Origin: Candidatus Nanohalobium sp.
GTDB lineage: Archaea > Nanohalarchaeota > Nanosalinia > Nanosalinales > Nanosalinaceae
Direction: 5' to 3'
NCBI GenBank assembly: GCA_042216335.1
Contig: JBDGTY010000013.1
Coordinates: forward strand, 1 to 23,432
DNA: 23,432 nucleotides
Positions within the stretch are counted from its first letter, which is position 1. Every line of letters starts with the position of its first letter. Positions 9,340 through 18,385 of this stretch are shown in pieces. The notes beneath the pieces were generated by a model. The model had not been told where the DNA came from, did no database searches, and saw only the letters and a list, made by a program, of their open reading frames with translations. Made by a program: the position numbers and the translations under genes.

Positions 9340-9777
9340 TCAGTAAACCTTCTCCTTATCCAGGTATTCATGAAGGAACTTCATCGGAGGATATCCGTAG
9401 CCAGCGTCTTGGTGCCAGTTCATTCTCTTGTACTCGTCGGCGGTGACCCAGGCGAAGTTTTGATGTTCTTTCGATATTTCTACCTTGCCTTCCCAGTTGC
9501 TACAGTGTATGATAAATGTGTCTACATCGTTTTCTTCCTCTATCTCTTCCCTGACTATATCACTAATTTCTCCGAGTTGAATGCCAATTTCTTCTTTAGC
9601 TTCCCTTCTCGCTGCTTCAAACCTGTCTTCTCCTTCTGCTAAAGTTCCTCCCGGCAGCTCCCACTTACCGGCCATTCTCCCGTACAAAGTATATTTGTGG
9701 CCACTGTGTACTTTATCTTCTGAGGTTTTCTGCATTGTCAGAAAGTCTCCATCCTCATTCTCTATCAATAGTTTCAC
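9340..9777 (-). CDS. NUDIX hydrolase (probable C-terminal domain of a frameshifted fusion)
   Basis: WELPGGTLAEGEDRFEAARREAKEEIG Nudix box. Confidence 0.9.
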   Translation of the reverse strand: MKLLIENEDGDFLTMQKTSEDKVHSGHKYTLYGRMAGKWELPGGTLAEGEDRFEAARREAKEEIGIQLGEISDIVREEIEEENDVDTFIIHCSNWEGKVEISKEHQNFAWVTADEYKRMNWHQDAGYGYPPMKFLHEYLDKEKVY

Positions 9778-10223
9778 AACTTTGATTCGCTCTCCCGAAC
9801 CATATCCTTTTCTGACTCAAGATAATCGCTTAGATATTCTATGACAGGAAGAATATAGGCTGCGTTTCTATGCCAGTTCAGTTCCAAAGCCTCCTTGCTA
9901 TCTATCCATCTGTATTCTTGATGCTCTTCCTCCAGCTCTATCTCTCCGGAGAAGGAATTATTGAACATCACGAAGCAGTTGACGGTTTCATCATCCTCTA
10001 TCTCCAGCCTAACAAGATCCCTGAAATCTTCTGAATTCAGGCCAGTCTCTTCCTTAATCTCTCTTTCCGCGGCTTCAAACCTGTCCTCATCATCCTGAAT
10101 CTTTCCGCCCGGCTGCTCCCACTTGTCCGCCATCCAGCCGTAACCCGAAGATTTTTTCAGCATCAAAAACTCGCCACTATCATTCTGGATTAGGACTTTG
10201 ACGACATCAATTTTCTCTGTCAT
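9774..10223 (-). CDS. NUDIX hydrolase (probable N-terminal domain of a frameshifted fusion)
   Basis: WEQPGGKIQDDEDRFEAAEREIKEETG Nudix box. Confidence 0.9.
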   Translation of the reverse strand: MTEKIDVVKVLIQNDSGEFLMLKKSSGYGWMADKWEQPGGKIQDDEDRFEAAEREIKEETGLNSEDFRDLVRLEIEDDETVNCFVMFNNSFSGEIELEEEHQEYRWIDSKEALELNWHRNAAYILPVIEYLSDYLESEKDMVRESESKL

Positions 10224-10642
10224 AGTAAATCGAACGCTTCCAGCGCTTTAATCTCTTCTCCAAGCTTTTCACGGGCATTCTCCAGGTTAGTTCCAAGGTT
10301 CTCTGTGTCGATCCAGGTGTATTCGGAGTGATCGGTCAAAAGTTCTTCATCGATCACTTTCTCCATATCTCTGTACATGTGTTCGGCGTATACAGGGATT
10401 ATGTCGTATTCACCACCTTTCCAAATATAGTCTGGTTTGGACTTGACAGCAGTTACCTCTATGCTGAACTCCTCATCCATCTCTCTTTCCGCAGTATACA
10501 GTGAATCCTCATCCACGTGTTCTTTACCGCCAGGAAACTCCCAGTCGCCGTTATCATTCCTCCGGGCAACCAGAAAATACCTTTCTTCACCAGTTCTGGG
10601 GATGACTGTGGCAGCTACTCTTCCTGTATACCTCTCCGACAT
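10220..10642 (-). CDS. NUDIX hydrolase
   Basis: WEFPGGKEHVDEDSLYTAEREMDEEF; ATG 10642 lies about 22 nt downstream of TTAAAA. Confidence 0.88.
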   Translation of the reverse strand: MSERYTGRVAATVIPRTGEERYFLVARRNDNGDWEFPGGKEHVDEDSLYTAEREMDEEFSIEVTAVKSKPDYIWKGGEYDIIPVYAEHMYRDMEKVIDEELLTDHSEYTWIDTENLGTNLENAREKLGEEIKALEAFDLL

Positions 10643-10675
10643 AGATATAGAAAGATTCACAAATTTTAAGCAAAT

Positions 10676-11062
10676 TTAGTTTAATTCCTCTGTATCGGTA
10701 ATTTCCACGCCTTCTTCTTCGGCAACTTCTGCTAGTTCAGAGTCCTCTGTAGCCAGTTTCTCTCCTGCTTCCTTGGCTGTGGTCAGATAGGATGCGTCGT
10801 ATAAGGTTATCTCGTGCTTCGAGGCGATTTTCATAACCTTCTCTCTATCCGGCCGGATTGCTTCCATCTCCTTTTCAAGTCTGTCAATCAGCTTGATTAG
10901 TTCAGCCAGTTCTTCTTTTTCTATCCTGTTCTGGAGGTTGTGCATCTTCCAGAACACGTTCCCGGTCTCGTAAAAGGTTAAATCCAGTATCTTCTCGTCA
11001 AACAGCTTTTCGACTTCTCCTTCTGTAAGGATTTTCACGAGGCTGCTCGTGTCGAATATCAT
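10676..11062 (-). CDS. vapC: VapC PIN-domain toxin
   Basis: MIFDTSS, LTFYETGN, TLYDASY, LATED PIN motifs; ATGA overlap with the antitoxin. Confidence 0.92.
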   Translation of the reverse strand: MIFDTSSLVKILTEGEVEKLFDEKILDLTFYETGNVFWKMHNLQNRIEKEELAELIKLIDRLEKEMEAIRPDREKVMKIASKHEITLYDASYLTTAKEAGEKLATEDSELAEVAEEEGVEITDTEELN

Positions 11063-15104: not shown

Positions 15105-15608
15105 TTATTCAAAGCTGATCTGGTAGTAGGTTCCTGTGATCTTCTCGATGATGTCCTCTAGTTCGTCCGTGGACATGTTGATCTTGCCCTCGAACTCCTC
15201 ATCGACCACTACCTTCTTGTGCTCGCCTTCAGGAGCGAACACCGTGTTAACTGACTCGATCTCCGCCGGGCTCAGCAGTCCTTTGATGACTTCTCGGTCG
15301 CTCTCGCTCTTCTCAACGACACGGATACTTTTCTCGATTTCTTCCGCGACTTTCTTTACTATTTCTCCGCTTCTGCCGACTACCTTGGCTCCGTCGCCTT
15401 CGGCAGTTACCACGACGACAACGTTTTCCGTGTCGTAGATGTGGAGGATCTCCGAGTCCCGGAGGCTTCCGTATTCGTCGCTGAGTTCTTTCAGCTTTCT
15501 TGAGATTTTGATCTCGAGTTCGTTGATCTCGCCGTTCTCCAGCTTCTCCTCGCAGTTGCTGCAGAGAACGTCGCTCTTCAGACATACATTACAGATTGGC
15601 GCCTTCAT
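15105..15608 (-). CDS. nusA: Archaeal NusA paralogue (Zn finger plus KH domains, NusA2-like)
   Basis: MKAPICNVCLKSDVLCSNCEEKL, KH motif VVGRSGEIVK, LLSPA...VNTVFAPEG. Confidence 0.85.
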   Translation of the reverse strand: MKAPICNVCLKSDVLCSNCEEKLENGEINELEIKISRKLKELSDEYGSLRDSEILHIYDTENVVVVVTAEGDGAKVVGRSGEIVKKVAEEIEKSIRVVEKSESDREVIKGLLSPAEIESVNTVFAPEGEHKKVVVDEEFEGKINMSTDELEDIIEKITGTYYQISFE

Positions 15609-15647
15609 ATACAAGTCCGCGTCGTGAAAAATTAAATAGGTGGAGAC

Positions 15648-16142
15648 TCACCGCAGGGAAAGGAAAAGCTGGCGCCCCGACTCAACAACGGCGGCGCCGC
15701 CGACAACTAGAAGGCCGTAGAACACTATGTACTCGTTGAAGGATCCTGCGACCAGTGTTGCAGCAAGTATAGCGACTCTCTCCTGCCTGCCGATTATCTC
15801 GACATTGGAAGACCTGAGTCTGTCCTTCAGCATCAGGTGGAACGAGTTCTGGAAGCCGACGGCCACGGCTGCGAAGAAAACCGGTAGAGCAGCCGGTGAG
15901 AAAAAGTAGGCTGAGAACAATCCCAGGAACTCGATAAGATTAGCAGAGAGAGAATGCAGCACCTTCGATGTATCAGTTCGTCCCTTCATCCTCGCCACTT
16001 TCACGCCCTGCCTGTAGAGCAGGAATGAAGCTGCCACGGATGTTCCGGTTATCGCCGGGTTCCCGACGATGATGCTTGCTCCCGTTCCGAGCACCATTGC
16101 TGCTATCGATGCAAGCGTCCACATGTAGTAATTGTTTGCCAC
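15648..16142 (-). CDS. Membrane protein, degenerate CDP-alcohol phosphatidyltransferase-like
   Basis: 5-6 hydrophobic helices; G-x3-AR and C-terminal GRQERVAIL retained, catalytic Asp residues absent; GTG 16142 lies about 25 nt from TGTTAA. Confidence 0.6.
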   Translation of the reverse strand: MANNYYMWTLASIAAMVLGTGASIIVGNPAITGTSVAASFLLYRQGVKVARMKGRTDTSKVLHSLSANLIEFLGLFSAYFFSPAALPVFFAAVAVGFQNSFHLMLKDRLRSSNVEIIGRQERVAILAATLVAGSFNEYIVFYGLLVVGGAAVVESGRQLFLSLR

Positions 16143-16183
16143 TGTGAGAATGTTATCGATGTCAAGTGTTAACAGTTTTTCGA

Positions 16184-16634
16184 TGCGGAAATCCCGGGGA
16201 TTTTCCCGCAAACCGAAGATAATTCTTGTCCTGGATTTTTAGAAGATAAAGCCCGGTCGGGTGAACGCTTCCGGTGCAGGAAAAGGGGGGGAGGGGAGTG
16301 TTTTTCGAGATTTTTTCTCGAAAAGGTTCCTGCAGTCCTTCCACGTTCACCCATCTGGGCTGTTGAAAATATTGTGTTTGGGAGGAGCCCGAGCCTGAAA
16401 CAAAAAGGGGGGGGAGGGGAGTGTTTTTGCTTTGGGCTCATGACTCCTCCTAACATAGCGACGAAAATCGAAGATTTTCTGGAGTCGAAGACTTCTCTGT
16501 CTTCTGTGCCGAGAAACCTGTCAGGGTTTCGGCCCAGAAACCTTCGGTTTTCGTACTTTAGGCCTCTAAGAGGCCCTTGCTGAAATCCTGGTGGACTCCA
16601 GCTTGGCGAAAATCCTCTCGGATTTTCTGGATTC
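16184..16634. ncRNA. Large structured non-coding element with two G-string repeats (ncRNA, ftsZ 3'UTR or oriC candidate)
   Basis: About 10 inverted-repeat stems plus the direct repeat A4-5G7-8AGGGGAGTGT5 at 16281-16305 and 16402-16428; the ORFs here lack host composition. Confidence 0.55.
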
Positions 16635-16655
16635 ACAAAATTCAAAGAGTTTTGA

Positions 16656-17726
16656 TCATCCGTTCATTACTTCCAGTCCGAGGTCGTTGACGTCGCCTGT
16701 GACTTCTGTCTCTGATTCTTCGTCGATGTCTCCGAGGACGTATGGGCTTTCCACTCCTGTGATGATGGAGATTACCTGAATCTTACCCTGAAGTTCTTCC
16801 TTGACTCTTGCGCCCCAGATCGTCTGTGCCTGGTTGTTGAGTTTGGATTTGACGTGCTGCCCGACCTCGTTGATTTCGTTAAGTGTAAGGTCGTTGCCTC
16901 CTGCGACGTGGAGCAGTGCTCCGTTTGCGCCGTCGAAGTTGACGTCTAGCAGCGGGTTGCTTAGTGCTTCGTGGATTGCTTCCTTTCCTTTGTTGTTTGT
17001 ATCTGACTCTCCGTATCCTACTACTGCTACGCCTCCGTCATTCATGATCGCCTGGACGTCTGCGTAGTCCAGATTGACGAGTGAAGGCTTTGATATCGTC
17101 TCCGTTATGCCTTTGATCATCGTGGTGATGAGTTCGTCGGCTACTCCGAATGCCTGGTCGAGAGGCATGTCTCCTGCGATATCGAGGAGTTTGTCGTTTT
17201 CAATAACGATCGCGGTGTCGACGTGCTGCCTCAGTTTGTAGAGACCATCTTCTGCCTTGCTCATCCTTGCGCCCTCGATCTCGAATGGCATAGTCACTGT
17301 TCCAATCACTATGCAGTCCTCCTTCTTCGCGATCTCTGCAAGTACAGGTGAGACTCCTGTTCCTGTTCCTCCTCCCATCCCTGCGGTGAGGAAGACCATG
17401 TCAGCGTCCTTGAACAGGTTTCTCAGTTCGGCACGGTTTTCTTCGGCGGCACGGGACCCTGTCTCTGGGTCTCCACCTGCTCCAAGGCCCTTAGTCAGGT
17501 CTCTTCCTACCAGTATCTTCCTGTCAGCGGAAGACATCTCCAGGTGCTGCTTGTCTGTGTTGATTGCGACAGTCTCGGCACCTTCAACATCCTTGTTCTG
17601 GATACGAGTTACCTGGTTGTTCCCGGCACCCCCAGCGCCGACTACCAGGATTTTGGCATCTCTTACATCATCTAGGTTTTCCGAGGTTTTGGAGTCGTTT
17701 TCAGCGTTGTCGATTATAGATTCCAT
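16656..17726 (-). CDS. ftsZ: Cell division protein FtsZ (FtsZ2-like)
   Basis: GAGGAGNN, INTDKQHL, GMGGGTGTG, NLDYADV, IWGAR. Confidence 0.98.
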   Translation of the reverse strand: MESIIDNAENDSKTSENLDDVRDAKILVVGAGGAGNNQVTRIQNKDVEGAETVAINTDKQHLEMSSADRKILVGRDLTKGLGAGGDPETGSRAAEENRAELRNLFKDADMVFLTAGMGGGTGTGVSPVLAEIAKKEDCIVIGTVTMPFEIEGARMSKAEDGLYKLRQHVDTAIVIENDKLLDIAGDMPLDQAFGVADELITTMIKGITETISKPSLVNLDYADVQAIMNDGGVAVVGYGESDTNNKGKEAIHEALSNPLLDVNFDGANGALLHVAGGNDLTLNEINEVGQHVKSKLNNQAQTIWGARVKEELQGKIQVISIITGVESPYVLGDIDEESETEVTGDVNDLGLEVMNG

Positions 17727-17796
17727 TGTAGTACCAGCCTTGCGTTTAGCACAACCTTTTTAAGTGCAGAGACCTAACTCTACCTGTAGAAAGACT

Positions 17797-17954
17797 GAGT
17801 CTTGCCCAAGACTCGATACATGCCCAAATACTGATTCGAACTTTGCCCAAAGTTCGAGACTGATACCAAACGTTCAATCGTAATCTGTAAGCCCGTTTCG
17901 AACTCGTGCCCGCGAGTCGAAACATGAATCATGTCATCGTCCGCCCAAGGACGA
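17797..17954. repeat. Array of four hairpins with a shared GCCC (GGGC on - strand) loop
   Basis: Stems at 17797-17814, 17836-17857, 17895-17923 and 17937-17954 differ in sequence but share the loop core. Confidence 0.75.
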
Positions 17955-17977
17955 ATCAAATCTATCTTAAACTAACA

Positions 17978-18026
17978 TTTCAACTCCCGCTTTATAAATC
18001 TTCTGTTACCTCGACGTTTCAACTCC
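17978..18026. promoter_or_regulatory. Palindromic TATA (TTTATAAA) flanked by TTTCAACTCC direct repeats
   Basis: TTTATAAA at 17991-17998; repeats at 17978-17987 and 18017-18026. Confidence 0.45.
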
Positions 18027-18106
18027 ACTGTTCACGAACGTTCACAGAACTGAAAACATTCCCTGCCCAGATTAATACTATAAGAATTCACACCTGCGAA
18101 CTACCT

Positions 18107-18385
18107 ATGGTCGACGCAGAAGAAGTCAGACAGGTAGCGGAGAACGCCAGAATCAAGGTAGAAGATGGGGAAGCGGAAAACTTTGCAGAAGACTTCGAAG
18201 ACATACTCGAGATGTTCGAAACACTCGACGAGATAGACACGGAAGGCGTCGAACCAGCCTTCCACCCGGTAGAAACAGGATCCAAAGCCAGGGAGGACGA
18301 GGAAGAGGAGACGCTGGAAAAAGAAAAAGTCTTCCAGAATACCGAAAACGAGGAAGACGGATACTTCAAAGGCCCGAGTGCATAG
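18107..18385 (+). CDS. gatC: Asp/Glu-tRNA amidotransferase subunit C
   Basis: VRQVAENARI...IDTEGVEP...REDE...DGYFKGP; CTATAA at 18078-18083. Confidence 0.93.
   Translation: MVDAEEVRQVAENARIKVEDGEAENFAEDFEDILEMFETLDEIDTEGVEPAFHPVETGSKAREDEEEETLEKEKVFQNTENEEDGYFKGPSA

Follow-up and report, generated by a model that had tools for sequence, protein, structure and literature searches.

The spacer in front of ftsZ in a nanohaloarchaeon, Candidatus Nanohalobium sp., contains a row of small hairpins that carry the same loop on different stems. This raises the question of whether the spacer encodes an RNA that controls the division gene, and from which strand such an RNA would be read. To our knowledge, the timing of archaeal division is largely unexplained, that of host-dependent DPANN archaea even more so, and its few regulators are DNA-binding proteins, for example CdrS. 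The window analysed here, meaning the whole stretch of DNA under study, is 23,432 nt long and comes from a genome (G000) of 1.02 Mb in 74 contigs with 49% G+C. The array sits in a 380-nt spacer (17727-18106, as delimited by the corrected gatC start at 18107) between the divergent genes ftsZ, on the minus strand, and gatC, on the plus strand. From left to right, the features of the locus are:

16656..17726, minus strand: ftsZ (FtsZ1-type), the array-linked gene; Pfam Tubulin and FtsZ_C; TIGR00065, 391 bits
17733..17741, minus strand: weak Shine-Dalgarno-like stretch AAGGCUGGU, 7-15 nt 5′ of the ftsZ AUG, with a putative Shine-Dalgarno (SD) role
17757..17763, plus strand fits better: TATA-L, TTTTTAA within the near-invariant AACCTTTTTAA, conserved in 30/30 loci
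17773..17791: Block B, CCTAACTCTACCTGTAGAA, conserved, with a small palindrome; holds the -10 AA and a predicted plus-strand start at about 17786-17788
17797..17814: hairpin 1, GAGTCTT-GCCC-AAGACTC, 7-bp stem, GCCC loop
17822..17827, plus strand: unpaired GCCCAA in the linker
17836..17857: hairpin 2, TCGAACTTT-GCCC-AAAGTTCGA, 9-bp stem, GCCC loop
17891..17894, plus strand: unpaired GCCC immediately 5′ of hairpin 3
17895..17923: hairpin 3, GTTTCGA(A)CTCG-UGCCCG-CGAGTCGAAAC, UGCCCG loop, outer stem with a bulged A
17937..17954: hairpin 4, TCGTCC-GCCCAA-GGACGA, 6-bp stem, GCCCAA loop
17966..17981, minus strand: Block C, CTTAAACTAACATTTC when written on the plus strand; -10 AA at 17978-17979, predicted minus-strand start at about 17967-17968
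17991..17998, minus strand: TATA-R, TTTATAAA, with a purine-rich flank on the right; a strong promoter candidate aimed at the array and ftsZ
18107..18385, plus strand: gatC, the right-hand neighbour; Pfam GatC; TIGR00135

Window 17797-17954 contains four hairpins with GCCC(AA) loops and two unpaired GCCC copies, and an additional GCCC copy lies at 18065. A preliminary description of this DNA had placed the hairpins and the extra copies (17822, 17891 and 18065) exactly where we find them, and the TATA-like boxes that it noted on both sides, which we place at 17757-17763 and 17991-17998, are near-invariant across the aligned loci. Its comparison with haloarchaeal cdrS did not carry over, as that comparison concerns ftsZ2. 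The gene here is FtsZ1-type, its best solved match being M. jannaschii FtsZ homolog 1 (E = 4.6e-103); six examined loci of the ftsZ2 paralogue have no array, and no cdrS-like ORF (at least 45 aa, ATG start) was found just upstream of ftsZ2 in six loci.

The constant part of the hairpins is the loop, whose core is CCAA (UUGG on the opposite strand) and of which some copies are unpaired. The arms differ among the four hairpins of one genome and covary between genomes, and the asymmetric centre stays the same. In a 30-sequence alignment that was fitted to the covariance model, and is biased toward it, 88.5% of the cells are paired, against 73.8% in shuffles. Compensatory changes occur at 17 of 26 pairs of this alignment, and the covariation score of 0.345 compares with 0.147 in shuffles, is reached by none of 500 shuffles and exceeds all slid controls (at most 0.066). 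These values bear out the earlier suggestion of selection on a loop that stays constant while its stems vary. Hairpin 4 covaries most strongly (4/4 pairs compensatory), the CUCG/CGAG core of hairpin 3 is invariant in 30/30 loci, and Block B is conserved in sequence without covarying. Because the alignment leans toward the model, hairpins were also called directly. This yielded 107 hairpins with at least 5 Watson-Crick pairs in the 30 loci and, in 51 loci, 78 unique hairpins with at least 6 pairs as well as 97 unique perfect stems around the motif, with 667 pairs in total. Compared with dinucleotide shuffles, the intergenic sequence folds with z = -4.0 on the plus strand and z = -1.73 on the minus strand.

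The spacer is 75-83% identical in all three other species of the genus, and four further genera share pieces of it. When eight spacers are aligned, two near-invariant TATA-like blocks stand out, with the hairpins between them, their stems changed and their loops unchanged. A covariance model built from this alignment and run on all 70 genomes of the order gave a full-length match in 39 of them, including G000. These matches, nearly always one per genome, cover 38 of the 49 other genomes of family f1 and none of the 20 genomes of the other four families. At all 30 loci that were fetched, the array abuts the ftsZ start and has three to six GCCC copies and zero GGGC on that strand. Among the genomes missed by the model, 9/9 loci that were read have the array upstream of the ftsZ orthologue with altered loops; the variants are UCCCAA/UCCCAC in three f1 genera, GCCCA(A) in f3 and f4, and CGCCAA in f5. 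A three-motif pattern matched 35/70 genomes, each at a single locus, whereas its reversed form, used as a control, had 9 matches in 8 genomes; at 17/19 further loci the ftsZ start lies within 330 nt of the array. The tie to ftsZ that had been proposed from one sequence thus holds across the phylum: by the covariance model of ftsZ-upstream regions, the pattern and reading of loci, the array is found upstream of orthologous, FtsZ1-type ftsZ in at least 54 of 70 Nanohaloarchaeota species genomes and 4 of 5 families, a count that sums the model matches, the loci read and the pattern loci, the other genomes not being read individually. Family f2 comprises one genome only, which is 61% complete. To its right the array has gatC in f1, f3 and f4; in f5 an Asp/Asn-tRNA-synthetase-like gene takes that place. 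One genome (G054, 81% complete) has two full-length copies of the array on separate contigs (C63:1671-1889 and C12:730-953), and L072 shows a second, partial ftsZ in one named MAG; two strains in one bin are a more probable cause than a duplication.

A chance origin of the array is excluded. Among 4370 GCCC/GGGC sites genome-wide, a perfect flanking stem of at least 7 bp occurs at two only, hairpins 1 and 2. GCCCAA has 148 copies on both strands of the 1.02 Mb, against 157 expected, and the array is the only site in the genome with at least three GCCCAA within 200 nt on one strand. The opposing case named in the preliminary description, a dispersed repeat unlinked to ftsZ, did not materialise: the stretch is single-copy in G000 by BLAST, and a REP/MITE-like repeat is rejected by its occurrence at one locus per genome, beside ftsZ. 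No small ORF conserved within the array was found. A C/D-box or H/ACA sRNA was rejected by eye, as conserved boxes, pockets or K-turns are missing. A replication origin, with ORB repeats beside orc1/cdc6, is unlikely because the single orc1/cdc6 gene (one Cdc6_C match) lies roughly 340-560 kb away in five of five complete relatives; orc1 is also absent among the 23 window ORFs scanned. T-box-like tRNA sensing was rejected too, as was mimicry of the anticodon loop, because the motif does not covary with the anticodon loop of tRNA-Pro(UGG): this loop is UUUGGGA in genera g1, g2, g7 and g19 alike, although the motif begins with G in g1 and g7 but with U in g2 and g19.

Searches of catalogues and literature point to something not described before. 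The Rfam 15 covariance models give no match at gathering score in the window, and with E up to 1 in 16100-18200 just two weak matches to microRNA models appear, at 16374-16466, outside the array. No published description of the array was found in the literature searched. Five very highly expressed ncRNAs have been reported from one cultured nanohaloarchaeal strain (Reva et al. 2023, PMC10266531); the repeated motif is not seen in the partial sequences available for them, and the strain may lack the array. The array has no counterpart among the catalogued RNA families and probably represents a new element of RNA-level control; we regard it as a new candidate regulatory RNA family with a putative function. 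As such it would belong with multi-hairpin regulatory RNAs whose loops are constant, possibly as part of a convergent-promoter module, and would be the first of its kind for archaea and for ftsZ1.

How the array compares with known systems depends on which feature is considered. The preliminary description likened it to the bacterial sponge RNAs CsrB and RsmZ, and it does share with them several short hairpins with varied stems and one loop motif, with further copies in open linkers. However, membership of the Csr/Rsm type failed on several grounds. CsrB and RsmZ repeat GGA/ANGGA in their loops, whereas the motif here is (G/U)CCCAA, with the loops GCCC(AA), UCCCAA, UCCCAC and CGCCAA; there is no Rfam match; and CsrA (PF02599) has zero matches in 5/5 genomes (G000 and four relatives), with the control matching in E. 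coli, B. subtilis and T. maritima. Moreover, the array is archaeal and fixed beside one gene, and its independent transcription is only conjectural. Iron-responsive elements (IREs) provide another comparison. The transferrin-receptor mRNA of eukaryotes has five IREs, each with a constant hexaloop, a variable stem and a C-bulge, read by one protein. If the array is a leader of ftsZ1, it would resemble them in having a constant loop on variable stems repeated in the untranslated part of one mRNA, and IRE arrays would then be the closest working analogy. They differ in loop sequence, in their C-bulge and in being eukaryotic, and a binder of the array is only hypothetical.

Other parallels concern the promoters. 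CopA/CopT and RNA I/RNA II of plasmids are sense/antisense modules. RnaG-icsA of Shigella and StfZ-ftsZ of E. coli are convergent-promoter sense/antisense modules whose transcripts, according to the portions of the reports available, are proven, and StfZ targets ftsZ itself. The array would resemble all four in having two promoters that face each other across a structured leader, where complementary loops could start pairing. It differs in that their loops vary from hairpin to hairpin, whereas those of the array share one motif and its transcripts are predicted from promoter architecture. An archaeal case is Haloferax volcanii, where, according to the available text of Liao et al. 2021 (PMC8406309), a single symmetric DNA motif at -50 of the ftsZ1 start is the binding site of CdrS. 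Both loci belong to halophilic archaea and have a conserved element 5′ of ftsZ1, Block B lying about 48 nt 5′ of the minus-strand start expected from TATA-L, but the hairpin array has no counterpart in the available text of PMC8406309.

The direction in which the array is read would be set by the two TATA-like boxes. In the host genome, TATA-like hexamers peak 28-33 nt 5′ of start codons, so most first genes are leaderless, and real promoters have an A-rich flank upstream and AA at +19/+20. A flank PWM was made from 135 of the genome's own promoters with the start-codon columns left out (training mean 2.44). With it, TATA-L scores 1.43 rightwards (plus strand) and -2.93 leftwards (minus strand), and TATA-R scores 4.24 leftwards, in the top 5% of 1950 TATA-like hexamers, and 0.05 rightwards. 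The spacing rule gives a similar picture. For TATA-L the AA at +19/+20 is present in the plus orientation in 30/30 loci and in the minus orientation in 0/30; for TATA-R it is present in the minus orientation in 28/30 and in the plus orientation in 5/30, and leftwards it is kept in 14/15 further loci. On the plus side of TATA-L, a CGAAA-type flank is present in family f4, and in genus g27 TATA-L is degenerate (TCTTTTTGTG). This evidence, a low-information flank PWM together with a spacing rule from one genome, favours both boxes facing inward, toward the array, with predicted starts at about 17786-17788 (plus) and about 17967-17968 (minus). On the plus strand, Block C reads as a short T-run and could be the end of a plus-strand RNA.

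TATA-L is also close to ftsZ, 31-41 nt from the ATG in 25/30 loci and 29-73 nt overall, which in the window's genus leaves little room for a leader with an SD. A canonical SD (GAGGUGA or GAGGAGA) stands 5′ of the ftsZ start in f3, f4 and f5, and a weaker one in the window genome; an SD before ftsZ implies that ftsZ has a leader. The SD words of the host genome are AGGTG and GAGGT, and AGGCUGAU was rejected as a true SD, as it matches the genome's GAGGUGA in part only. A helix enclosing TATA-L beats shuffles (p at most 0.05) in 11/39 loci on the plus strand and 13/39 on the minus strand; it is strong in f3, and the window's genus lacks it. Another helix, around TATA-R (AACATTT/AAATGTT), was rejected by eye, as it has a C-C mismatch in ATCTT-type genomes. 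Block B may alternatively be a transcription-factor site about 48 nt 5′ of a TATA-L-driven minus-strand ftsZ start, in which case the antisense promoter would no longer be needed. On the other side of the spacer, gatC has its own TATA-like box at 18078-18084, about 28 nt 5′ of its ATG (about 28-31 nt in the aligned spacers). Between TATA-R and gatC, window 18027-18047 contains ACTGTTCACGAACGTTCACAG, a (C)TGTTCA-N5/6-GTTCA repeat with a small palindrome, which is kept in all eight aligned spacers and visible in many of the 30 loci. In sequence, this repeat resembles an operator at which a transcription factor would act on gatC or on the rightward side of TATA-R.

The stems themselves give mixed indications of strand, and among the 12 sequencing runs listed for the locus no RNA run appears. 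Over the 30 loci the mean fold z-score is -4.39 for the plus strand and -2.60 for the minus strand, and the plus value is lower in 27/30. The minus strand is G/U-rich and has a lower raw energy than the plus strand; its G/U richness makes its shuffles fold better too, which weakens the preference of the z-score for plus. The structure-conservation index (MAFFT alignments, 25 subsets) is 0.28 for plus and 0.30 for minus. Stems are almost purely Watson-Crick, with wobble near-absent on either strand, as would be expected under selection on both strands or on DNA palindromes. Counted per locus, the internal mismatches are 13 A.C, 6 G.T and 8 other; counted per unique hairpin (n=78) they are symmetric, with 8 G.T, 7 A.C and 5 other. 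Juxtapositions at stem ends, just outside the stems, are 29 G.T, 22 A.C and 46 other. In hairpin 2, one A.C recurs in several genera (a G.U on the minus strand), and several of the G.T cases are singletons. The mirrored mismatches (29 vs 22; 8 vs 7) and the Watson-Crick stems match selection on both strands. Some loci of other families (L099 and L100 in f3, genus g27, and L102 in f4) have extra hairpins without a CCCAA loop between Block B and the first motif hairpin, one example being GGTCGGTTAGA-AGAAC-TCTAATCGATC, which contains two G.U pairs only when read on the plus strand. These pairs are a hint, specific to these lineages, of a plus-strand RNA.

What is the array, then? The hairpins are observed, as are their uniqueness, conservation, covariation, ftsZ1 linkage and promoter-like surroundings; transcription from either strand, the ends of the transcripts and a regulatory effect on ftsZ1 are inferred. 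Both transcripts suggested in the preliminary description, a plus-strand sRNA and an ftsZ leader of roughly 240 nt, stay under consideration. In the widest terms, we consider it very likely that the array is a functional, transcribed, structured RNA element linked to ftsZ1. It would be a cis-linked element of the ftsZ1 locus in Nanohaloarchaeota, made of three to seven short hairpins or open segments, each with (G/U)CCCAA on the plus strand and UUGGG(C/A) on the minus strand. More specifically, and tentatively, it may serve as a structured ftsZ1 leader of roughly 240 nt that is made from a distal promoter and opposed by an antisense RNA, with the constant loops as contact points; we see this as a real possibility, short of an even chance. 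TATA-R (17991-17998), firing leftwards from a start at about 17968, would transcribe the array toward ftsZ1 and so provide the ftsZ1 mRNA with a structured leader of about 240 nt. TATA-L (17757-17763), firing rightwards from about 17787, would produce a fully complementary antisense RNA of about 180-210 nt. The output of ftsZ1 would then be set by sense/antisense interplay, through GCCCAA/UUGGGC loop-loop contacts, duplex formation or polymerase collision, and perhaps also by a trans-acting factor that recognises the constant loops. Several observations speak against this leader/antisense model. TATA-L, at its distance of 31-41 nt, could be the promoter of ftsZ and yield a short leader; the fold z-scores prefer the plus strand (27/30 loci); the TATA-L helix is absent in the window's genus and TATA-L is degenerate in g27; and sense/antisense pairing alone leaves the identical loops unexplained.

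One rival is a sponge. A stand-alone plus-strand sRNA of about 180-210 nt, whose loops and open GCCCAA copies would titrate a sequence-specific RNA-binding protein, would start near 17787 from TATA-L and end in the T-rich 17977-18005, with TATA-R serving gatC or marking the 3′ end. Such an sRNA would agree with the exactly spaced plus-strand promoter in 30/30 loci, with the stronger plus-strand z-score in 27/30, with C/A-rich linkers that have no GGGC for mispairing, and with the unpaired motif copies beside looped ones, a feature of multi-site sponge RNAs. Position alone makes the KH/zinc-ribbon NusA-like protein, whose gene lies downstream of ftsZ1 in 29/35 named loci, a candidate binder. 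A trans-acting gene, however, does not need a fixed linkage to ftsZ1, in one orientation, in at least 54/70 genomes. TATA-R is also a far better match to a leftward promoter than to one firing rightwards, a clear terminator is missing (T-runs of 3-4 nt only), the excess of G.U over A.C expected of a one-strand RNA is not seen, and the ncRNAs of PMC10266531 lack the repeated motif in their partial sequences, with the reservation that their strain possibly has no array. On balance we find the sponge somewhat unlikely.

The symmetric mismatches suit double-stranded palindromes as well as two RNAs, and the array might instead act as DNA, its motifs or palindromes, or both, binding proteins such as CdrS-type RHH proteins at the divergent ftsZ1/gatC promoters to activate or repress, possibly via cruciform extrusion. 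The symmetric CdrS motif at -50 of the H. volcanii ftsZ1 start, in the available text of PMC8406309, is a precedent, the genome has 10 RHH_1 matches above the curated cut-off, and Block B shows conserved sequence without covariation. But half-sites read by a protein stay constant, and here it is the arms that vary and covary and the asymmetric centre that is fixed; all motif copies also point in the same direction at irregular spacing. Arms of 5-9 bp are, in addition, short for cruciforms. A DNA-level role for the array seems to us quite improbable. Least probable by far is a role as the long leader of gatC, or of the right-hand gene of the Asn-tRNA pathway, on a rightward transcript from TATA-L. 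The plus orientation of TATA-L would fit, as would the identity of the neighbours: gatC in f1, f3 and f4 and the Asp/Asn-tRNA-synthetase-like gene in f5, which we take to belong to the same pathway. Yet gatC has its own box at about 28-31 nt, the usual leaderless geometry, the spacing between TATA-R and the gatC ATG ranges over 97-199 nt (measurable in 26/30 loci), the position of the array is fixed relative to ftsZ and not to the right-hand gene, and the motif does not track the tRNA, the tRNA-Pro(UGG) loop being identical in GCCCAA and UCCCAA lineages.

If the leader/antisense model is taken further, the locus might be a phylum-wide RNA switch on FtsZ1, of a type new in archaea, in which facing promoters produce mirror-image multi-hairpin RNAs that pair through multivalent loop contacts (GCCCAA/UUGGGC). 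We consider this full form unlikely, and set it out for what it would entail. Any hairpin could contact any other, the loops being mutually complementary, and a dedicated loop-binding protein could tip the balance, with the KH/zinc-ribbon protein as the positional candidate. Such a switch, if real, could couple division to host contact in these host-dependent cells. The array offers a well-defined candidate for control at the RNA level: it is single-copy, present in at least 54/70 genomes, located before ftsZ1 and covarying, and it has two predicted starts. With it, the catalogues would gain a new archaeal RNA family, and a protein that binds its loops, should one exist, would represent a new sequence-specific archaeal RNA-binding system.

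The surroundings of the locus have features of their own. The KH/zinc-ribbon gene is at 15105-15614 on the minus strand and encodes a zinc-ribbon and KH_5 'NusA-like' protein (PRK06418, 146.6 bits; model cut-off 175); it lies on the same strand as ftsZ1 in the 29 of 35 named nanohaloarchaeal loci, and its position makes it a candidate binder of C-rich or G-rich loops. Directly downstream of ftsZ, window 16212-16655 is a stretch of about 440 nt without a credible ORF and without a credible Rfam match. It contains two copies of AAAAACACTCCCCTCCCCCCC..TTTT about 125 nt apart, shares 73-80% identity with the corresponding stretch in the three species of the genus, and includes a piece of about 25 nt, near 16459-16484, that recurs at several loci in other genera. 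In G000, an assembly 96% complete, ARAGORN detects no more than 11 tRNA genes, of which four lie at contig ends, and the 16S 3′ end was not found with two short probes; the RNA genes of this genome seem to be poorly assembled. Farther from the array, window 9340-10660 on the minus strand has three tandem NUDIX-domain genes (9340-9777, 9774-10223 and 10220-10660), followed by a PIN-domain gene at 10676-11062.
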